Shown here piece by piece: positions 1 to 61,841 of a DNA stretch of 64,000 nt. Every line of letters starts with the position of its first letter. Position 1 is the stretch's first letter. A program made the position numbers and the translations under genes. Source of the stretch: an uncultured Gammaproteobacteria bacterium (GTDB taxonomy: Bacteria; Patescibacteriota; Microgenomatia; Daviesbacterales; UBA10151); assembly GCA_964547465.1 (NCBI GenBank), contig CAZJNI010000005.1, positions 7,020 to 71,019 on the forward strand, given 5' to 3'. Below the pieces are notes generated by a model. It did not search any database. It was not told the DNA's origin and saw nothing but the letters and a program-made list of their open reading frames with translations.

Positions 1-2042
1 GCACGGGCACACAATGTCAGAACTATTCTATCCAGGATCCTTATTATCCTCCGGAAGGAGTTTGCCCCGGAGGAAATTATGTTCCTTGTGGATATGGAAG
101 TTATCCTGCCTGCAATGATCCAAATGTTTGTGGGGGGCCTAGCTGTAATTACAACAGAACTTATAACCAATGCTGTGGCAGTAGTTTAAGTCAGAGTGTG
201 CAGGAATACACATACTCTGACGGTTCTGGAGTATGTAATTATGTAGTAGGAGCATGTAATCAATCTGATCCTGCCTGTGCACCTACTCCAACCCCAACTC
301 CTGTACCCACCAATGATGCCTCAACTTGTACGGCCATCAGTGTAAATGGTGGTAATCCTGTTATTGTTGGAAGAAATTATCCTGCCACAGTCAGCATGAG
401 AAATGATGGAGACACTAACTGGATATGGGACCAGCCAAACCCATACAGATTAGGCTCCCAGGACCCTCAAGATAATAATGTTTGGAGTTTAAGCAGGGTG
501 GATTTGCCAAGTTCCCCCAAGGCCCCGGGTACTACTGCCACATTTAATTTTAATGTCTGGGCCCCAACCACTGCCGGAACATATAGCTTTAACTGGCGGA
601 TGGTTAAAGAAGGGATTCACTGGTTTGGATCTAAATGTTTTTATAATGTCGCAGTTAGCCCGGCCCCAACTCCTACTCCAACACCTATTCCTTTTACCTA
701 TACCTTAACAAATGGTGGAGACAGAAGTATTATTCAAGGCTCATCCACCACAAATACTATAACTGCCACTCTTGGTTCCGGTACAACTCAACTGGTTAAC
801 CTTTCTGTTTCAGGTTGCCCGTCTGGAGTGACCTGCTCTCTTTCCCCCACCTCCGGTAATCCTACTTACACAAGCAGCTTAACCATGAGCGCCAGTTCAA
901 CTGCCGCCACAGGGACTTTTCCGATAACAGTAACCGGTACATCTTCCGGGTTATCTAACAGAACCTCCACCTTTAATTTAATTGTTAACCCTGCTTTAAG
1001 TCCACCAGCTCCAACTGCTTCCACTCCTTTACCTTGTATTAATGCCGGTTACAATGGATCCGGGGTAACTATTTCCTGGAATACCTCGACTAACCCTGGG
1101 GTAACATATGTGGATATAGACAATGACTCTAATTGGGCTAATGGTTATTATCACAAAGCTGTCAGCGGCTCTTCTACCACTGCTGATAATTTTAACGGCT
1201 TTGCCGGTTTATCCGGAGTATTAACTTTAAATCCCAACACTACCTACTATTTCAGGACCTGGAATGGGACTCAAAATAGTGCTGTAAATTCTTTTAGCAT
1301 TCCCAGCTGTGCAGACCTGACAGTAGATTCTCTTTCTCCCACTAGCGCTGTAGCGGGAAATGCTGTCAGCTTTTCCGGCAGGGTGCTAAATTCAGGCAGT
1401 ATCTCTGCCGGAGCATCTTCAACCAGGTTAAGGTTTGCATCAGTTGCCGGAGGAAGTTTAGATACTACCCCGGCCAATCAACCAGTGGCAGCTTTGGCTG
1501 CCGGAGGCAGCCAGACAGCCAGCTGGGCCTCTGTTTGGACTGCCAGTGGAGCAGGAAATCATACATATGAAATTTGTGCCGATACTCCTGCCAATGCAGT
1601 TTTAGAATCCAGTGAAGTAAATAACTGTACCACTGGCAATATAAATGTCACTTCTGCCCCGGCTTTTGATTATTCCCTTTCTAATTCAGGGAATATCACC
1701 CTTACTCAAGGTTCTTCCGGATCCAATACCATTACCAGAAATTACCTTTCAGGAACCTCCAGCGGAGTAACTATTTCTGTTGTTTCAGGATTGCCTGCCG
1801 GTGCCACAGCTGCTTTCACCGCTAACCCTTGCAGCCCAACCTGCTCCAGTACCCTGACTATCTCCACTTTATCTTCCACCCCAACCGGCTCTTATCCTAT
1901 TTCTGTTACCGGTTCTCCCTTAGGTGTTAGTACCACACCTACTAATTTTACACTGACAGTTAACCCGTCTCTTGGAGGTAATCCCTGGTTTCAGACAATA
2001 GGTGGAGATGTACACTCAAATACTGAAATATATACAAGATGA
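1..2042 (+). CDS. 5'-truncated surface/secreted protein. The reading frame is open from the window edge (frame of nt 3), so the GTG at 198 is not the true start. It has a Cys-rich N-terminal part, repeated Ig-like/CARDB-like beta-sandwich modules, Pro-Thr linkers (PTPTPTP) and S/T-rich stretches.
   Basis: The frame has no stop from nt 3 to 2042. PTPT linkers and repeated NxT/S-rich modules are present. There is no ATG at 198. Confidence 0.6.
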   Translation, partial: TGTQCQNYSIQDPYYPPEGVCPGGNYVPCGYGSYPACNDPNVCGGPSCNYNRTYNQCCGSSLSQSVQEYTYSDGSGVCNYVVGACNQSDPACAPTPTPTPVPTNDASTCTAISVNGGNPVIVGRNYPATVSMRNDGDTNWIWDQPNPYRLGSQDPQDNNVWSLSRVDLPSSPKAPGTTATFNFNVWAPTTAGTYSFNWRMVKEGIHWFGSKCFYNVAVSPAPTPTPTPIPFTYTLTNGGDRSIIQGSSTTNTITATLGSGTTQLVNLSVSGCPSGVTCSLSPTSGNPTYTSSLTMSASSTAATGTFPITVTGTSSGLSNRTSTFNLIVNPALSPPAPTASTPLPCINAGYNGSGVTISWNTSTNPGVTYVDIDNDSNWANGYYHKAVSGSSTTADNFNGFAGLSGVLTLNPNTTYYFRTWNGTQNSAVNSFSIPSCADLTVDSLSPTSAVAGNAVSFSGRVLNSGSISAGASSTRLRFASVAGGSLDTTPANQPVAALAAGGSQTASWASVWTASGAGNHTYEICADTPANAVLESSEVNNCTTGNINVTSAPAFDYSLSNSGNITLTQGSSGSNTITRNYLSGTSSGVTISVVSGLPAGATAAFTANPCSPTCSSTLTISTLSSTPTGSYPISVTGSPLGVSTTPTNFTLTVNPSLGGNPWFQTIGGDVHSNTEIYTR

Positions 2043-2048
2043 AAAAAT
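2004..2048. repeat. Left copy of a 44-bp perfect direct repeat (tGGAGATGTACACTCAAATACTGAAATATATACAAGATGAAAAA). It forms the C-terminus and stop of the upstream gene.
   Basis: Identical to 3026-3069. Confidence 0.9.
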
Positions 2049-2068
2049 AGTGATGATATAATTAACTA

Positions 2069-2368
2069 ATGCAAAAAATGCCTCTCTTTTTAGAACAATA
2101 CTTCTGGGATGTAGATTTTAAAAAGCTCACTTTTCAAAAATCAAAAACTTTTATTTTAAAACGGGTACTAGATAGAGGCGATGACAAAGCAGTCAAGTGG
2201 CTACTAAAACACTATTCAAAAGAAGACATTACGCAATTATTATTAACAAGCCGGGATCTTTCTCCAAAAACTGCTAATTTTTGGGCAGACTTGCTAAGTT
2301 TAGACAAAAGAAAGGTTGTATGTTTACAAAAACCTTACTCCCGGATACAATTCGGGCTCTCAAGCTAG
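2069..2368 (+). CDS. Small protein (99 aa) immediately upstream of, and overlapping, the AbiEii-like gene. It is a putative cognate partner or antitoxin.
   Basis: It overlaps the downstream toxin-like gene by 48 nt and shares its orientation. The family assignment is uncertain. Confidence 0.45.
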   Translation: MQKMPLFLEQYFWDVDFKKLTFQKSKTFILKRVLDRGDDKAVKWLLKHYSKEDITQLLLTSRDLSPKTANFWADLLSLDKRKVVCLQKPYSRIQFGLSS

Positions 2369-2955
2369 TATCTAAAATAGATATTATCAAAAAAAGTTAT
2401 TTAGCAGGAGGCACTGCATTAGCTTTGCATTTGGGGCATAGAATCTCAGTGGATTTAGACTTTTTTACTTTGCATGTTTTTGATGAAAAGTCATTGGCTG
2501 GCGAGCTTAAAATGCTGCCTGAATATAAAGAGGACGGCATAGCCTGGAGAACTGTCTGGGGAAAAGTTAGCAAGACTAAATTCAGTTTATTTTACTATCA
2601 ATATCCCCTGATTAAAAAAACCGTTAACTTTGAGGGCATCCAAATTCTTCAAAAAGAAGATATTGCTGCCATGAAAATACATGCTATGGAAGACAGAGGC
2701 ACTAAGAGGGACTTTTTTGATTTGTATTTTCTGGCAAAGGAGTTTAGTTTGGAACAAATGCTAAAGTTTTATGATCAAAAATATGACAATTTAAAAGAAC
2801 ATATCTATATAATTATCAGAAGTTTAAACTACTTTGCTGATGCAGAAAAAGATAATGACCCCAAAATGCTCACTTCCGTTTCCTGGGAAGAAGTTAAAAA
2901 TTTCTTCAAAAATCAATCCCTCCAACTTGCCAAAGACAAACTAAAACTCAAATAG
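2320..2955 (+). CDS. Nucleotidyltransferase of the AbiEii/AbiGii (DUF1814) toxin family. The likely start is the internal Met at 2320, whereas the ORF track starts at 2281.
   Basis: The motif YLAGGTALALHLGHRISVDLDFF is typical of AbiEii-type NTases. Confidence 0.6.
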   Translation: MFTKTLLPDTIRALKLVSKIDIIKKSYLAGGTALALHLGHRISVDLDFFTLHVFDEKSLAGELKMLPEYKEDGIAWRTVWGKVSKTKFSLFYYQYPLIKKTVNFEGIQILQKEDIAAMKIHAMEDRGTKRDFFDLYFLAKEFSLEQMLKFYDQKYDNLKEHIYIIIRSLNYFADAEKDNDPKMLTSVSWEEVKNFFKNQSLQLAKDKLKLK

Positions 2956-3025
2956 ATGATTAGGTTTTGACATCTATCCCAAAAAAACCTAAGATAAAAT
3001 GGTGTCAACATTCCAGGCAATGAAT

Positions 3026-3069
3026 GGAGATGTACACTCAAATACTGAAATATATACAAGATGAAAAAT
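3026..3069. repeat. Right copy of the 44-bp direct repeat. It contains the ATG of the downstream gene.
   Basis: Identical to 2004-2048. Confidence 0.9.
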
Positions 3070-5262
3070 ATTAACTTAAAATATCTGGAATTATTACTTT
3101 TGTTTTTTCTCTTAACCTTGATTTTGGCATTGAAAACTCAAGTCGCTTCCGCCCAAACTCCAACTCCAGTACCTCTGCCTTGTGGTTTTGGGGTAGCCAG
3201 AGCAACTGGATTGGTTACTACACCAAAGTTCCAGTCAGGTAGCAGTAACTTTGGCACCACTGGAGCTTGTATTATTGACCCTAAAACTTCTTTTGCTCCA
3301 TTTAAGATTCCTTCATTTGATGATTTAAAATCACTTTATTATAATCAAAAAAATAGTACTAACGTCACTAAACATGAGTTGAGTGGAAATCCGCCGTACA
3401 GCCAAACCAACATACCTTTCACTGATTCTACAGACTCTCTTTATCTTGTTAACAGTGATCTAACAATCAGCGGCAATAACACTGGTACTCATACCGGTGT
3501 TGTTTTTGTAGAAGGGAACCTGAATATAACTGGAAATTATTGTTACGGAAGCACTTGCCCTGCAGGTTCTGTCAATGGCACAATAGGCACTGTATTTATT
3601 GTTAGTGGGAATGTTAATATTGCCTCAACAGTTACCAGGATTGATGCGGTTTTAATCTCCAGTGGCACAATTTATACTGCCGGAGCAAATTGTAATCCTA
3701 ATTCTGTGACAGGAAGCAGCAAACTAACTATAAACGGTAGCTTAATATCCTTAAAACAGCCTTCAATCACGGATCCAAACGCTTCTTATATCAAATTCTG
3801 TAGATCTCTAACAGATAATAGTCAACCTGCAGAAGTAATTAATCATCAGGTAAAATATTTAGTAATTTTACGGGATCTCATATCTGATACCTGGCAAAAA
3901 TGGTCAGAGATCGATGCCAGCTTACCCCTGCCAACACCTGGCTCTACCCCTGCCCCAACCCCCATTCCCACCCCAACCCCCACACCCACACCAACACCTA
4001 CCTCAACTCCAACACCAACTTCCTGTTCTGTGACCGCAGGGGTTGTAACCTGTAACTATGCTGGTACTCAACAAACATGGGTTGTACCAACTGGTATAAC
4101 TTCTATTAGTGTCGACGCCAAAGGCGCCCAAGGAAGTAATGGTAATCGGGGTGCAACTGGTGGAAAAGGGGCGCGTGTTATAGCAACTATTAGTGTTACT
4201 GCAGGAGAGACTTTGTATATCTATGTAGGCGGACAGTCTCTTGGGAGGTCGGGTGGATATAACGGAGGAGGGACAGGTGGCACAGACCCATCAAGTGATC
4301 TTGCCGGGGGTGGCGGAGGTGCGTCCGACATCCGGAAAGGCGGAACAGCGATTAGTAACCGTGTTGTAATTGCGGGTGGTGGAGGAGGTGGCGGCTCGGA
4401 ATGTTCCGCATGCTTAAATGTAGCAGGATCAGGCGGAGCTGCCGGTGACCCTCTAGGTAAAATTGGGTCTAATGGAACCGGGACTTATAAGGGATTTGGT
4501 GGTGGGGGTGGTACTATGACTGCCGGAGGAAGCGGAGGTGCAAGCGGTGGTGGTGCTTCAACTGCCGGCTCTAGTCCTGTTAGTGCTGGTATTGGTGGGG
4601 CTGGAGGAAATGGCGCTGGTAATGGAGGTGGAGGTGGAGGTGGCGGAGGCGGTTATTATGGTGGAGGCGGTGGAGGTGGTGGTGATAATGCCGGCAGTAA
4701 TGCTGGAGGTGGCGGTGGAGGTGGTGGATCCAGCTATGGTGATACATTTACCAGCGGCTATCAAAGTGGCAACGGTCAAATTATTATCACGTATTCAACT
4801 TCTACTCCCCAACCTGTTGTGACTTACTACCGTGATGCGGATGGTGATACATATGGTAATCCCAGTGTCACAACCACTTCTTCAACAGGTGCACCTGCCG
4901 GTTATGTCTCCAATAATACTGACTGTTATGACTCAAATGCCAATGCCAAACCAGGCCAAACTCTTTACTTTGCTACCCAAAGAGGTGATGGCAGTTTTGA
5001 TTATGATTGTAATGGGACAATAGAAACAGACGGAAAAGCAATCCATCAAGGTACAGGTGGTTATAGTAAAAATATTGTTTCTGGTAACTGTGCCTATGTT
5101 TCTAATGCTAAATACGGTGCTAAACTTACAAGTAGTTCTTGTGGAACTACTGGAACCTATTATGTTTATGAAGATAACAGGGTGTACGATGGCAGTTGTA
5201 CAGGGACTCTTCTTGGGTATCTTCTTCAAGATATAGGTACATACACAATGCAATGCAGATAA
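3061..5262 (+). CDS. Secreted glycine-rich protein (733 aa). It has a signal peptide, a Pro-Thr linker, a long poly-Gly/GGxGG low-complexity region and a C-terminal Cys-containing domain.
   Basis: The N-terminus MKNINLKYLELLLLFFLLTLILALKTQVASA is a signal peptide. The protein contains PTPTPTPTPTPTS and GGGGGGG runs. Confidence 0.6.
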   Translation: MKNINLKYLELLLLFFLLTLILALKTQVASAQTPTPVPLPCGFGVARATGLVTTPKFQSGSSNFGTTGACIIDPKTSFAPFKIPSFDDLKSLYYNQKNSTNVTKHELSGNPPYSQTNIPFTDSTDSLYLVNSDLTISGNNTGTHTGVVFVEGNLNITGNYCYGSTCPAGSVNGTIGTVFIVSGNVNIASTVTRIDAVLISSGTIYTAGANCNPNSVTGSSKLTINGSLISLKQPSITDPNASYIKFCRSLTDNSQPAEVINHQVKYLVILRDLISDTWQKWSEIDASLPLPTPGSTPAPTPIPTPTPTPTPTPTSTPTPTSCSVTAGVVTCNYAGTQQTWVVPTGITSISVDAKGAQGSNGNRGATGGKGARVIATISVTAGETLYIYVGGQSLGRSGGYNGGGTGGTDPSSDLAGGGGGASDIRKGGTAISNRVVIAGGGGGGGSECSACLNVAGSGGAAGDPLGKIGSNGTGTYKGFGGGGGTMTAGGSGGASGGGASTAGSSPVSAGIGGAGGNGAGNGGGGGGGGGGYYGGGGGGGGDNAGSNAGGGGGGGGSSYGDTFTSGYQSGNGQIIITYSTSTPQPVVTYYRDADGDTYGNPSVTTTSSTGAPAGYVSNNTDCYDSNANAKPGQTLYFATQRGDGSFDYDCNGTIETDGKAIHQGTGGYSKNIVSGNCAYVSNAKYGAKLTSSSCGTTGTYYVYEDNRVYDGSCTGTLLGYLLQDIGTYTMQCR

Positions 5263-5319
5263 GCCGGACCTGTTTCCACTTTACCTAAAATATTTACTTC
5301 CCAAAATTTCTTTTCTGGT

Positions 5320-5952
5320 TTAGAAAACTATTTCTGCGTTGGGGAGTAACTTCTTAATATTGTCTTTTTCAGATTGTCCAAGATTGTTGCCGGTTAGTTT
5401 TAAACTGTGGAGCACACTTAAACTGCCTATTTCTTTTGGAAATTGGGTAAGTTTATTACCTGATAAATCAAGAGCTTGCAGGCTTACTAATTGATTAATT
5501 TCTGCCGGGATTTGAGTAATTTGATTATCAGATAAATCAAGACTCATTAAAGTTGTTGCGGCTAAAACCTCTGTTGGGAACTTGGTAAGATTATTCCCTT
5601 TTAAGGAAAGCTCGTTTAGTTTGGTAAGTTTACTTATATCATTGGGGACTGTTTCAAGTTTTTGTTCCGACAGGTTTAAAACACAGGCTATATCAATATT
5701 TTTTAAAGCCTCATCAAGTAAGCTAAACTGTTTGCAAATTACTTTAACAGGCTCATCTGTATTTAAGCTTGAAGAATTTGTGGATGAGTTTTGAACAGGA
5801 ACTGATGAGTTTTTACTGACCTGCTTTAAGTTTTTAAATAAGCCGAATCTTTGCAGGACAAAAAGGATAAAAATTATCACCAAAATCCCAATTACTATAA
5901 AAACAGCTTTTTTTACAAAATTGGTATTCCCTTCTGTTGGTTGCTGATCCAT
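5320..5952 (-). CDS. Leucine-rich-repeat protein with one N-terminal TM helix. The start is probably the internal Met at 5952, because the longer ORF to 6123 would overlap the pilin gene.
   Basis: LRR units are present (LxxLxLxxNxLtxfP, several copies). The TM segment is AVFIVIGILVIIFILFVL. Confidence 0.55.
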   Translation of the reverse strand: MDQQPTEGNTNFVKKAVFIVIGILVIIFILFVLQRFGLFKNLKQVSKNSSVPVQNSSTNSSSLNTDEPVKVICKQFSLLDEALKNIDIACVLNLSEQKLETVPNDISKLTKLNELSLKGNNLTKFPTEVLAATTLMSLDLSDNQITQIPAEINQLVSLQALDLSGNKLTQFPKEIGSLSVLHSLKLTGNNLGQSEKDNIKKLLPNAEIVF

Positions 5953-6043
5953 ATCTAAAGAGTATTTAAAATTGTTCTCTTTGTCAACGAGTACGTACCC
6001 CAAAAATTTCTTTTCTGGTTTTGGTATAGTTAGAATATATTGT

Positions 6044-7072
6044 ATGAAACGTGGCTTTACCTTAATTGAACTACTGGTTGCTGTCTCAATTATTGCTGTT
6101 TTATCTACCGTTGGTTTAACCACTTTCTCAAATGTTCAAAAAAGCGCCAGAGATAGTGTCAGGAAAGGTGATTTAGTAACTCTTGCCACAGCTTTGGAGA
6201 TATATTTCCAAACAAATGGGAAATACCTGGTAAATACTGGCAGCTGCATAGATAATACTGCAGGCTCAAGTCTTTATACTAATGCTGATTATGCAAAATT
6301 AATCAATGGATCATTACCTAAAGATCCCAAAACCGCAGCAAATTATTGCTATGAATCCCCTTCCGGTTTAACCTTTAAACTTTATGCAAAGCTGGAAGAT
6401 AATACAGACTATATCTTGACTTCTGAAGATTATATAGCCCAGGCAACCCCTGCTCCCACATCCACACCAACTCCAACTTCCACACCAACAAGCACTCCAG
6501 CCCCAACTGCAACACCAACTCCTATCCCAACCGCAACCCCCATTCCCACTCCAACCCCCATTCCTGCCAAACGTGTTTTTGTCACCTCAACTACATATAA
6601 TGGAAATTTGGGAGGATTATCCGGAGCAGATATTAAGTGTCAAACCAAGGCTAATGCTGTGCCTTTGGGTGGGACTTGGAAAGCATGGTTAAGTGATAAT
6701 ACAACTAATGCAAAAGACCGTTTATCTCATCACAATGGGCAATATCAACTGACTAACGGGACCAAGATTGCTGACAATTGGGATGATTTAATCAATCTTT
6801 CTGCATCAAATTTCCTTGATAGCCCTATCAGTTTAACGGAATTTGGTTCTTCAATTATCTCTAGTGGTACTACATGGACAGATACTTCACCTACAGGTGA
6901 TATAATAGTGATTTCAGGACAAAATAATAATTGTTACGGATGGACTAGCCCGTATAATGTAGCTTTTGCGCTTGTGGGAGAAATAGGCAGACAGGATGAA
7001 CGCTGGACACAGAGCATTGCTCCCCGCCAATACTGTAATTATTATTACCGTTTATATTGCTTTGAGCAGTAA
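6044..7072 (+). CDS. Type IV pilin-like protein. It combines an N-terminal prepilin methylation motif with a Pro-Thr linker and a C-terminal DUF1554-like Cys-containing domain.
   Basis: MKRGFTLIELLVAVSIIAVLSTVGL is a class III signal and the G|FTLIE cleavage motif. The C-terminal FVTSTTYNGNLGGLSGADIKCQ resembles DUF1554. Confidence 0.75.
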   Translation: MKRGFTLIELLVAVSIIAVLSTVGLTTFSNVQKSARDSVRKGDLVTLATALEIYFQTNGKYLVNTGSCIDNTAGSSLYTNADYAKLINGSLPKDPKTAANYCYESPSGLTFKLYAKLEDNTDYILTSEDYIAQATPAPTSTPTPTSTPTSTPAPTATPTPIPTATPIPTPTPIPAKRVFVTSTTYNGNLGGLSGADIKCQTKANAVPLGGTWKAWLSDNTTNAKDRLSHHNGQYQLTNGTKIADNWDDLINLSASNFLDSPISLTEFGSSIISSGTTWTDTSPTGDIIVISGQNNNCYGWTSPYNVAFALVGEIGRQDERWTQSIAPRQYCNYYYRLYCFEQ

Positions 7073-7141
7073 CTGCTTTCCAAAATTTCTTTTTTGGATT
7101 TGGTTCATATTGTTGTTTGACTGCAAATTATTTTTAATGAT

Positions 7142-7548: not shown

Positions 7549-7635
7549 CATGTACAAGGACAATCCACTTTATTGATGCTTTATTTCACTTCCCAAAATT
7601 TCTTTTCTGGATTTGGTATAGTTAGAATATATTGT

Positions 7636-59256: not shown

Positions 59257-59661
59257 TCAGCTTTTTTTCTCGCCCACAATTTTTTCAAATTCTTTTGCTA
59301 GCTTTATATCAAAAGTTTTAAATTCTGTCACTCCCGCCATTTTTGAAAATGCAAGATTGTAACAGTCCTCCAAACCTATAACTGATTTTTCATAAAAAGC
59401 AAGACTTTCCTGTAATAGCTGTTTTTCCGGGAATATTATGCTTAAATTAAGTATTTTAGATAGGATTTCTACCAAAAATGATTTATCTTTTTTGTAGAAA
59501 GATTTTAATACAAAGTGTATTTCAAAAAATACCACCGAGGAAGTAATTAATTCAATTTCCCCTTTTGCAGCTCCAAGAAAAAGTTTTTTAGCTTCTAAAT
59601 ATTGAAGTTTATTCTCTCGTAAAATGAATCTTAAAAAATAATTAGTATCAACAAAAATCAT
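59257..59661 (-). CDS. vapC: PIN-domain ribonuclease toxin (VapC).
   Basis: MIFVDTNYFLRF and acidic PIN residues. It overlaps the upstream antitoxin. Confidence 0.75.
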   Translation of the reverse strand: MIFVDTNYFLRFILRENKLQYLEAKKLFLGAAKGEIELITSSVVFFEIHFVLKSFYKKDKSFLVEILSKILNLSIIFPEKQLLQESLAFYEKSVIGLEDCYNLAFSKMAGVTEFKTFDIKLAKEFEKIVGEKKS

Positions 59662-59918
59662 TTGGAGCTATATTTACTTTTATAATATTCATCCCGCGCT
59701 TCATCAATAATTTGATCCAAATTTTTACCTTTCCATTTTTTGGGCATAGGTACAGAACCTGCCAACTCCTCAACTAGCCTTTCTGCTGAAGTAATTTTTA
59801 AGCTACCATTTTCCTCTGATACTATTACCCTCTGGCCTATCTGCAACCTAGCTTTTCTAAAAATTTCAGCCGGGATGGTTAACTGTTTTTTACTGGTAAT
59901 GGTGGCCATTTGATTCAT
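59658..59918 (-). CDS. vapB: AbrB/MazE-type antitoxin (VapB).
   Basis: SpoVT/AbrB-like ITSKKQLTIPAEIFRKARLQIGQRVIV. Confidence 0.7.
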   Translation of the reverse strand: MNQMATITSKKQLTIPAEIFRKARLQIGQRVIVSEENGSLKITSAERLVEELAGSVPMPKKWKGKNLDQIIDEARDEYYKSKYSSK

Positions 59919-59996
59919 ACAAGGTAATTATATCATATGCAAGGAGAATTTTTATTTGCAAGGTAAATGCCCACAAAATCCGCTAAAGGTCTTCTT

Positions 59997-61841
59997 CTAG
60001 TTTCCTTTCTTCTTACCCACAATTTTTTCAAATTCATCAGATTCCAGGGTTTCTTTTTCCAGTAAGGCTTTGGCTACTTTATCAAGCTTAAGTTTGTGTT
60101 GTTTTAAAATAATGACTGCATTTTTAAAAGACGAATCCATAATTTTTTTTATTTCTTTATCAACCGCATTATGCAAATCAGGCGACATTTCCCCGCTATC
60201 ATCCATTCCCCTCCAGACTACAAACATCGACTTTGATTGCATAGTGATTGGACCCAAAGAGGACATGCCATATTCCATTACCATTTGTCTGGCAATTTGG
60301 GTTGCAACAGAAATGTCAGAAGCTGCACCTGTTGAGATATCTCTAAATTCCATCTCCTCCGCAGCCTGTCCACCTAAAGCAGCACTAATTTGTTCAAGTA
60401 AGCGAGATTTGGTTTCATTTGACCTATCTTCTGTGGGAGGAAAAAGTGTATGCCCACCAGACATGCCTCTTGAGACAATAGAAATTCGATGAACCGGGTC
60501 AACATTTTTCAAAAAATGTCCCACAATGGCATGACCTGCTTCATGATATGCTGCCAGTTTTCTGTCTCTTTCTGATTGCATTCTCTTCCTTTGTGGCCCT
60601 AATTTTTCCTTGGTGGCTGCTTCTTCCAAATCTTTTGCATCTATGGCTTTTTTGCCTTCCCTGGCTGCTAAAATTGCCGCCTCATTTAACATATTGGCCA
60701 AATCTGCACCTGAAAAACCAACTGTACGTCTTGCTAATTTTTCTGTTGAAACCTCTTTGGTAAAAGGCTTTCCTTTCATATGAAGTTCAATAATGGCTTT
60801 TCTCTCCACCAAATCAGGCAGGGATAAAACCACTCTTCTGTCAAACCTTCCGGGTCTTACCAAAGCTGAATCCAAAAGGTCTGGCCTATTAGTTGCAGCA
60901 ATCACAATCACATGATCAGTTTGAGTAAACCCATCCATCTCCACCAATATCTGATTTAGTGTTTGCTCCCGCTCATCATGCCCGCCAGAAAACCCCATGC
61001 CTCTTTGTCTGCCAATTGATTCCACCTCATCTATAAAAATGATTGCCGGGGCTGCTTTTTTGGCCTGGGCAAACATGTCGCGGACTCTGGCAGCACCAAC
61101 TCCCACCAGCATTTCCATAAATTCTGATCCGGCAATTGAGAAAAAAGGCACTCCTGCCTCCCCTGCCACAGCCCTGGCAAGTAAAGTTTTTCCAACTCCG
61201 GCCGGTCCCACCATTAAAACTCCTTTGGGGATTCTGGCACCCAAAGCTTTAAATTTATCCGGAGTTTTTAAAAACTCCACTACTTCAGTTAACTCTCTTT
61301 TTGCCTCCTCTGCCCCAGCTACATCGCTGAATTTAATTTGCGGAGCATCTTTGGTAAAAAGTTTAGCTTTAGATTGGGCAAAAGAAAATATTCCCTGACC
61401 TGCTTCCCTGGCATTTCTGAAAAGTAGAAACATCAGTCCTACTAAAAGTAGAATAGGCAAAATGGCAGATAAAAGCCCAATCCAGGCTTGCTGGATAGAT
61501 AAATCTTTTACTTCAACAGTGACAGTTTTGGGATCAACACCGCTAGATTGCAGGATTTTATAAATTGATTCTCCCGGCTCTTTTCTGGAAGTTAGTTTTT
61601 GATCAGAGTCCTTAACATCAGCAGTTACTTTATCCCCTTCTAAAGAAAGTTTCGTAACTTTGCCGTCTTTGACATCATTTATAATTTGAGATATTGGCAC
61701 ATCAGTGCCTGTTGTAGGAGAACCTGAAACCTGATAAAAAAAGATTAAAGCTGCAAAAGCAATTAAAAGATAAACTGCTAAGCCTTTGACTAAACCTAAA
61801 ATCTTTTTATTTAAATTAATTCTCCTTTTACCATTTGCCAT
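59997..61841 (-). CDS. ftsH: ATP-dependent zinc metalloprotease FtsH.
   Basis: Walker [12 protein letters not shown], and HEAGH zinc motif. Confidence 0.95.

Follow-up and report, generated by a model that had tools for sequence, protein, structure and literature searches.

How does a toxin–antitoxin-like cassette come to stand between two copies of a single gene junction? The question is raised by a 64-kb stretch of DNA from an uncultured bacterium assigned to the Daviesbacterales within the Microgenomatia (contig CAZJNI010000005.1, positions 7,020 to 71,019 of the forward strand); the whole stretch is called the window here, and coordinates are window positions unless a relative locus with an L number is named. 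Near the window start, a perfect 44-nt direct repeat encloses two genes, encoding a small protein of the DUF6922 family and a short AbiEii/DUF1814 nucleotidyltransferase. The most probable history is that two surface-protein genes, translationally coupled through an ATGA junction, were separated by the insertion of this promoter-bearing addiction or defence cassette, which duplicated 44 nt (up to 58 nt) of the junction. The locus contains the following features.

1–2042, forward strand: 3' part of the gene for a large surface protein, truncated by the window start and ending in NPWFQTIGGDVHSNTEIYTR and a stop codon; CARDB (2.3e-12) and Ig-like domains (Pfam)
1989–2046, forward strand: left repeat copy, with a perfect core (2003–2046) and a diverged extension (1989–2002)
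2047–2068, forward strand: cassette 5' end, with an extended -10-like sequence TGATATAAT at 2054–2062, 6 nt before the DUF6922 ATG
2069–2368, forward strand: gene for the DUF6922 small protein, 99 amino acids (aa), PF21956 (E=2.8e-17), putative antitoxin or regulator
2320–2955, forward strand: gene for the short AbiEii/DUF1814 nucleotidyltransferase, 211 aa, PF08843 (E=6.6e-16), putative toxin
2956–3010, forward strand: spacer of 55 nt at the right end of the insert, with TTGACA-17-TAAGAT at 2967–2995 facing the downstream gene
3011–3068, forward strand: right repeat copy, with a perfect core (3025–3068), representing the displaced end of the upstream gene
3061–5262, forward strand: gene for a secreted protein of 733 aa whose N-terminal part is beta-helix-like and which also has a Gly-rich region; the right repeat contains the start codon (ATG)

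Results

A gene junction is duplicated around the cassette

A pattern search for TGGAGATGTACACTCAAATACTGAAATATATACAAGATGAAAAA returned two perfect copies in the window, 2003–2046 and 3025–3068; the copy number stays at two when up to three mismatches are permitted, and 100 shuffles searched with the same tolerance gave no copy. The perfect 44-bp repeat reported in the initial annotation is thus real, its coordinates (2004–2048 and 3026–3069) having been off by 1–2 nt. Identity stops at 2046 and 3068, base 2047 being A and base 3069 T, and extending the repeat upstream gives 58 nt at 91% identity (1989–2046 against 3011–3068). Within the 14-nt extension (1989–2002 against 3011–3024), 9/14 positions match and all five mismatches are transitions. 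Random 14-mers of the window are as similar, with transition-only mismatches, at a frequency of ~4e-5, and the probability that all five differences lie within the first 14 of the 58 repeat positions is ~4e-4; the duplication is therefore at least 58 nt long, with a sharp boundary inside it. Since its 36-nt core has no match in JGI metagenome contigs or IMG/VR, the 44-nt repeat is not a dispersed element, and the search for further copies proposed in the initial annotation led to no more than the two in the window.

The two copies serve different genes, as had been claimed from the outset: the left one encodes the last 12 codons (GDVHSNTEIYTR) of the upstream surface-protein gene and its TGA (2040–2042), and the right one holds the ATG (3061) of the Gly-rich secreted-protein gene. 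In the left copy an ATG at 2039–2041 overlaps the TGA as ATGA, and the downstream start in the right copy again lies in an ATGA overlap. This overlap is retained by a mini-open reading frame of 14 codons formed by the right copy, running from ATG 3020 to TGA 3062–3064 and encoding MNGDVHSNTEIYTR; two of the five transitions in the right-copy extension create this in-frame ATG and a third creates AGG just 5' of it. Both flanking surface genes stay intact despite the insertion. The repeats have no hairpin potential, folding no better than shuffles (z -0.25 to +0.5), and the insert ends carry no terminal inverted repeats.

The probable arrangement before insertion can be read from L001 (Ca. Daviesbacteria CP066688), the only usable syntenic comparator, L003 and L004 having other upstream genes. 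L001 and the window have in common a pilin-like gene, UppS, polyprenyl synthase and two further genes, UppS being 74% identical and four other neighbouring genes 37–71%. In L001 a 1084-aa surface protein (containing WIQTTGGDIYSNT and ending in DPWIQTTGGDIYSNTINTPGGP before its stop codon) overlaps the homologue of the downstream gene by ATGA, and this junction has neither cassette nor repeat. A C-terminal motif, W-x-Q-T-x-G-G-D-x-x-S-N-T, is common to the L001 protein and the window's NPWFQTIGGDVHSNT, which identifies the first half of the repeat as host-gene sequence and points to the single junction as the ancestral state. Deleting one repeat and the insert from the window, which the initial annotation expected to recreate an ATGA overlap between the surface genes, yields the very arrangement seen in L001. 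An insertion with duplication of the gene junction, as proposed there, is supported by the L001 architecture, by the presence of the cassette in many contexts and by the non-dispersed nature of the repeat.

The insert encodes a DUF6922–AbiEii pair

The insert measures 978 nt (2047–3024), and its only two credible genes, with their PF21956 and PF08843 matches, are the small protein and the AbiEii/DUF1814 nucleotidyltransferase named in the initial annotation. The PF08843 match of the 211-aa protein scores 59.4 bits, above the curated cut-off of 22.5, and PADLOC AbiEii models match it down to 1.5e-9. Its motifs AGG-TALALHLGHRISV-DLD and MKIHAMEDRGTKRDFFDL align with the matching blocks of PDB 4o8s/4ok0. 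Four motifs have been defined for DUF1814 proteins, pol-beta motifs I and II and C-terminal motifs III and IV (PMC7450476), and by inspection they were assigned here to a pol-beta-type GG-x13-DLD block and a C-terminal K..ED RGTKRDFFDL block. Profile and motifs together thus place the protein in the DUF1814 family. It does not form a strict type IV AbiE (AbiEi/AbiEii) system, as its partner is the 99-aa DUF6922 protein and not the winged-helix AbiEi (COG5340).

DUF1814 toxins act on tRNA and are partnered by diverse small upstream antitoxins (PMC7450476); characterised members (MenT1/3/4 and AbiEii) cause growth arrest via tRNA 3'-end modification, or bind GTP, and some take part in abortive infection (PMC7450476, PMC10435456, PMC11375011). 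By analogy with these family members, the 211-aa protein would be the toxin of the pair, and the position of the DUF6922 gene suggests a putative antitoxin. The DUF6922 protein has 433 homologues, all of ~100 aa, and its AlphaFold model is a five-helix bundle with a predicted local distance difference test (pLDDT) score of 87.7; no NCBIfam or PADLOC model matched it. The source annotation begins this gene at 2078, giving 96 aa.

The two genes overlap by 49 nt. This overlap (2320–2368) and ~20 nt beyond it are almost invariant DNA between genomes (window, L005 and L006), and the DUF6922 tail CLQKPYSRIQFGLSS is near-identical in 30 of 31 homologues, for which a dual-coding constraint would be the simplest explanation.

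At the cassette 5' end, TGATATAAT stands so close to the DUF6922 ATG that a leaderless or near-leaderless transcript seems probable, and a TGnTAAAAT/TGATATAAT-like motif is kept at the same position 5' of DUF6922 in other cassette loci. The TTGACA-17-TAAGAT site of the spacer has 10/12 promoter matches; nothing 3' of the AbiEii stop, the 55-nt spacer included, is conserved among the other cassette loci. The spacer was also considered as the footprint of an earlier pyrD-adjacent site (TAAAATGGnGTC..AACATT, common to L006), a candidate that was rejected (shuffle P ~0.015; missing at the orthologous pyrD locus L046). Base composition does not set the insert apart, the G+C fraction being 0.30–0.39 in the insert, 0.41–0.49 in the upstream gene and 0.36–0.40 in the first kb of the downstream gene.

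The cassette occurs in other genomes, in part with copied flanks

The AbiEii protein has 5013 homologues, of which the best 120 are 70–87% identical and are distributed across Davies-, Roizman-, Levy- and Blackburnbacteria; a 100% identical AbiEii comes from an 81.7-kb NCBI contig, and IMG/VR gave no relatives and so no evidence for phage carriage. The same cassette is found in at least seven unrelated contexts in other Microgenomates, where genes of 99 and 210 aa with the 49-nt overlap adjoin secE-nusG, pyrD, fmt, the gene for a CCA-adding enzyme and other genes. Because a near-identical architecture adjoins different genes in different genomes, the cassette is, to judge from its distribution, mobile. 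Between the window and L006, AbiEii is 81% identical, DUF6922 78% and dihydroorotase 64%, so that the cassette is apparently far better conserved than its surroundings. The pyrD context of L006 has an ortholog (~80% DNA identity) in the Daviesbacteria locus L046 (3151–5297), where the DUF6922 gene lies beside pyrD, the contig breaks inside the cassette, and a PIN/PhdYeFM pair stands on the other side of pyrD.

All fetched cassette loci were scored for flanking direct repeats, and seven independent contexts have both flanks. Long flanking repeats of local host sequence are present in three of these seven:

Window cassette: repeat of 44/58 nt, spacing 1022
L006 cassette: repeat of 137 nt, ~93%, spacing 1001–1002
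Roizmanbacteria fmt locus: repeat of 39 nt, 33/39, spacing 1008

In L006, the repeat reaches from the 5' end of divergent pyrD across the intergenic region into the cassette, whose own promoter and first ~20 nt it includes. By the same procedure, 18 of 942 pseudo-cassette placements (1.9%) in the window and loci showed a repeat ≥29 nt long, most of these 18 stemming from one paralogous pilin pair; at this rate, three or more of seven contexts correspond to a binomial P of ~2e-4, a value that is indicative only, as the contexts were not pre-registered and the placements overlap. Repeats of different sites, 30–137 nt in length, share no sequence. Once paralogous genes and low-complexity Pro/Thr tracts are set aside, the window has just two long local direct repeats, and each flanks one of its two toxin–antitoxin cassettes.

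Other small modules stand between direct repeats

The other of these two cassettes lies at the far end of the window.

59257–60035, reverse strand: vapBC in the ftsH 3' end, with a MazE/AbrB-type antitoxin gene (59918 to 59658) and a PIN/VapC gene (59661 to 59257)

The antitoxin and PIN genes match Pfam PF04014 and PF01850, respectively, and a promoter-like TTGCAA-N18-TGATATAAT lies upstream. A 30-nt piece of the ftsH end is duplicated (60035–60006 and 59292–59263; 27/30, with three transitions), and the displaced ftsH tail, EFEKIVGEKKS, now provides the last 11 residues and the stop of VapC. By these marks, the vapBC cassette at ftsH is a second event of the same kind within the window. Comparable structures are found in two relative loci. 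At L010 6455–7571, a Fic/DOC-domain gene (302 aa, HPFVDGNGRIGR) lies between 63-nt direct repeats of 81% identity, the right copy being the true start of the downstream glycosyltransferase-like gene and the left copy a decayed duplicate. In L002, a ~70-nt direct repeat (854–923 and 2174–2243; blocks 28/29 and 28/30) brackets the gene for a 408-aa AAA-type ATPase, which adjoins a PIN/AbrB pair.

A cassette array has formed at the fmt 3' end of Roizmanbacteria

At the Roizmanbacteria fmt locus, three AbiEii cassettes form an array.

L036, 3838–7682: fmt array; the same array is present in L016–L025 and L037–L045

The first two cassettes are only 42% identical. A copy of the fmt 3' end (TTTYCTCAACGGCTACCCnGnGGCAAAAGA) stands 1–10 nt past the stop of each cassette and reads as an fmt-like C-terminus (DFLNGYPGAKE..); four copies of this end are present in total, with 0–5 substitutions and none expected by chance, and in the copy after the first cassette the TGA overlaps the ATG of the next cassette. 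The array was found in 24 independently assembled contigs from NCBI, JGI and ENA samples. L022 carries a 2.6-kb extra segment (2881–5509) at the point where L016 has a single repeat copy (3644–3672); this segment is bounded and subdivided by fmt-end copies and contains two further cassettes, whose genes, of 222, 265 and 120 aa, have no Pfam match. L022 and L016 represent the filled and the empty state of one natural site. The ±10 kb around the array gave no integrase call.

A 309-aa 'AbiEii' of the Roizmanbacteria array was considered as a DUF6922–AbiEii fusion and rejected: the AbiEii portion begins only at Met100, the N-terminus before it does not resemble DUF6922, and the open reading frame is over-called. 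Around 2 kb past the array, L036 has a cluster resembling a type IV secretion system (T4SS), with T4SS pilin, PrgI, TraC-like and TraG/VirB4-like genes.

Neighbouring genes downstream of the locus

The 733-aa downstream protein has 245 homologues, the best being 61% identical. Beyond its gene, five copies of a 29-nt motif (TTCCCAAAATTTCTTTTCTGG; 5293–5321, 5993–6021, 7072–7100, 7585–7613 and 9799–9827) mark gene boundaries around type IV pilin-like genes and may be a shared promoter or terminator element. Two of these genes, adjacent to each other (5972–7072 and 7573–9678) and carrying the N-terminal methylation motif (KGFTLIELLVAVSII), are 92–97% identical over ~460 nt of their 5' parts and have unrelated C-terminal domains, a pattern that points to recent duplication or conversion of a 5' module.

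Discussion

Alternative origins of the duplicated junction

Site-specific integration survives best among the rival explanations, and is itself unlikely. The repeats would then be attL and attR of a small element lacking an integrase, such as a satellite or a decayed island, moved by a tyrosine or serine recombinase acting in trans, with the element's own copy restoring the gene 3' end. This would fit the choice of a gene 3' end as target and the restoration of that end, the way in which cassettes have occupied the fmt 3' end one after another, each with its own repeat copy (as in tandem islands or integron arrays), the filled/empty polymorphism bounded by the repeats, and the perfect core with an imperfect extension, which resembles an att core with diverged arms. 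However, recombinase genes are missing from the insert, from the next 10 kb of the window and from ±10 kb around the fmt array, the repeats of different sites are unrelated, differ in length (30–137 nt) and lack hairpins and dyad symmetry, and no conserved attP candidate is found 3' of the AbiEii stop. 

A purely local origin is considerably less probable still. Here, slippage or tandem duplication would have doubled the 44–58-nt junction, with a cassette landing there later by chance, or 'junction + cassette' would have been duplicated in tandem and the second cassette deleted. Chance insertion between pre-existing repeats is a class distinguished by Furuta et al., repeat-flanked restriction-modification units are known to amplify in tandem, and the L006 repeat includes the cassette 5' end, as the remnant of a tandem duplication would. 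Yet two or three independent precise events would be needed at one spot, whereas a single insertion predicts what is seen, the left copy continuing the upstream gene and the right copy leading into the downstream gene; moreover, the pattern recurs at unrelated sites with unrelated cargo, and adjacent cassettes of the fmt array are 42% identical while their repeats are ~90% identical.

An assembly artefact, in which a cassette fragment was joined via a shared k-mer to give a false duplication, is most improbable: the source is evidently a metagenome-assembled contig and the break inside the L046 cassette indicates that such cassettes can perturb assembly, but a misjoin would not yield two junction copies each in frame with a different host gene, the analogous fmt array is present in 24 independently assembled contigs (NCBI, JGI and ENA), and the window holds a second case (vapBC/ftsH).

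Insertion of the cassette into the ATGA junction with duplication of that junction is therefore the preferred explanation, and several observations weigh against it. Duplication cannot be obligatory, since four of the seven scorable contexts lack a flanking repeat, and the L006 repeat, which takes in part of the cassette, is not a pure target duplication and may instead reflect tandem duplication or Campbell-type recombination. The abrupt change from 0/44 to 5/14 differences along the window repeat is left unexplained by simple duplication followed by drift. L001 is a distant relative, its downstream protein being 49% identical, and matches the window at the level of protein and architecture only; the empty-site comparison proposed in the initial annotation thus gave a single ATGA junction without insert in L001, while its other half, a strain-level empty site in DNA for the window junction, was not found. 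Finally, promoter-like sites are no commoner than in shuffles according to a promoter scan, a PDB fold search with the DUF6922 model gave no match, and no literature on DUF6922 was found, the family having no characterised function.

A possible mechanism

The 978-nt insert contains no transposase, integrase or recombinase gene, and the 10 kb of the window that follow lack a recombinase gene as well. With no recombinase, no terminal inverted repeat, no sequence common to the sites, no hairpin and repeats ranging from 30 to 137 nt, it is unlikely that a transposase, an integron integrase or any one site-specific integrase recognising a fixed core was at work; a recombinase acting in trans is possible. 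We infer that host recombination or repair, rather than an element-encoded enzyme, would make the join. One option is an illegitimate, microhomology-guided join: the left junction shares an A-run and the right one TGGAG.. together with the 9/14 stretch, and this 'homeologous' stretch, if it were donor sequence, would explain the sharp boundary. The other is a Campbell-type or double-crossover homologous event with a donor relative that already had the order repeat–cassette–repeat, in which the second repeat would have served as the right homology arm.

Selection would then retain only junction-duplicating events: through the left copy the upstream gene keeps its last 12 codons and stop, and through the right copy the downstream gene keeps the surroundings of its start. 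The 14-codon mini-open reading frame ending in ATGA might maintain termination–reinitiation at the downstream start, and the promoter-like TTGACA-17-TAAGAT in the insert may help to preserve downstream expression. Recombination between the repeats would normally delete such inserts, and a toxin–antitoxin cargo would penalise this loss, giving a bias in cargo as with restriction-modification units. If it works like MenT/AbiEii, the 211-aa enzyme would add nucleotides to the 3' ends of tRNAs and so block translation, with the small upstream protein restraining it.

A wider and more speculative proposal, which is rather doubtful at present, is that members of the candidate phyla radiation (CPR), specifically Microgenomates, capture cassettes by a route that is independent of dedicated recombinases or driven by host ones. 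Promoter-bearing addiction or defence cassettes would be placed at gene ends with 30–140 nt copied, repeated use of one site would build integron-like arrays such as that at fmt, and the copied ends would act as portable homology arms for gain, loss and exchange by homologous recombination after DNA uptake.

How toxin–antitoxin and small defence modules move between genomes free of transposases and integrases is poorly understood. The long-target-duplication signature is seen here around families of toxins that act on RNA or protein (AbiEii, VapBC and Fic), twice in the window and in other Microgenomates genomes, which speaks for insertion as the work of the host, with addiction only keeping the insert in place. 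The filled/empty pairs and the cassette array offer natural material for examining the mechanism. For annotation, insertions of this kind explain short 'orphan' gene-end fragments and chimeric C-termini beside toxin–antitoxin genes, such as a VapC with an FtsH tail.

Comparison with known systems

'Insertion with long target duplication' of restriction-modification gene units was reportedly described by Nobusato et al. in 2000 (Gene 259:99). Such units are flanked by >30-bp copies of a unique target, often across a start or stop codon, which spares the adjoining gene; they lack mobility genes, and the mechanism of their insertion is unknown (PMC2853133, PMC3874152). The length of the duplication varies, from 46 bp in H. 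influenzae up to ~400 bp in H. pylori (PMC2853133), a link to DNA breakage by the cargo has been suggested, and many of the hosts are naturally competent (PMC2853133, PMC3874152). Furuta et al. 2010 (PMC2853133) define the class by repeats >30 bp, a single-copy target, an insert <20 kb with no mobile-element gene, and a repeat that is not dispersed; on the same terms, the window locus has a repeat >30 bp that occurs nowhere else in the 64-kb window and a 978-nt insert with no mobility gene. It is probably an 'insertion with long target duplication' with toxin–antitoxin cargo in a CPR host, a new example of a mechanistically unsolved kind, and full-text literature searches returned no description of this insertion mode for classical toxin–antitoxin modules.

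The likeness to the restriction-modification cases lies in the small addiction-type unit, the lack of a mobility gene, the unique repeats >30 bp of variable length and the intact neighbours. In contrast with those units, the cargo here is AbiEii, VapBC or Fic, toxins that as far as known do not cut DNA; therefore, double-strand breakage made by the cargo cannot apply here. Further differences are the hosts, which are CPR/Microgenomates, and the accumulation of a cassette array at one site, the fmt 3' end.

With AbiE and MenAT (AbiEii of S. agalactiae, MenT1-4 of M. tuberculosis), the cassette shares the Pfam AbiEii match, the G-G-x13-D-x-D and K...R-D-x-x-D motifs, and a small overlapping upstream gene that is probably co-transcribed. 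The enzyme has 211 aa here against ~250–300 aa there, and its partner is DUF6922, not AbiEi (COG5340) or any MenA type.

The fmt array resembles integron arrays (attI/attC, IntI) in that small cassettes, often toxin–antitoxin genes, are stacked, each followed by a repeat, and are gained and lost between strains; however, no IntI-like gene is present in the flanks, the repeats are copies of a host gene end and not imperfect palindromes, and the cassettes have their own promoters. Islands at the 3' ends of tRNA, tmRNA or protein genes likewise restore the gene end on one side and displace it on the other, and show an imperfect extension beside a perfect core, whereas the window insert has no integrase, is only 1 kb long, and belongs to a set in which the target sequence differs per site. 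Transposons and insertion sequences differ in their inverted repeats and transposase, both lacking here, and in their short target duplications of fixed length, the duplications here being 30–137 nt and variable. The pdif (XerC/D) modules of Acinetobacter plasmids, some of which carry toxin–antitoxin genes, are modules bounded by short repeats and moved by host recombinases, with conserved 28-bp Xer sites in alternating orientation; in contrast, the repeats described here are direct, locus-specific and derived from host genes.

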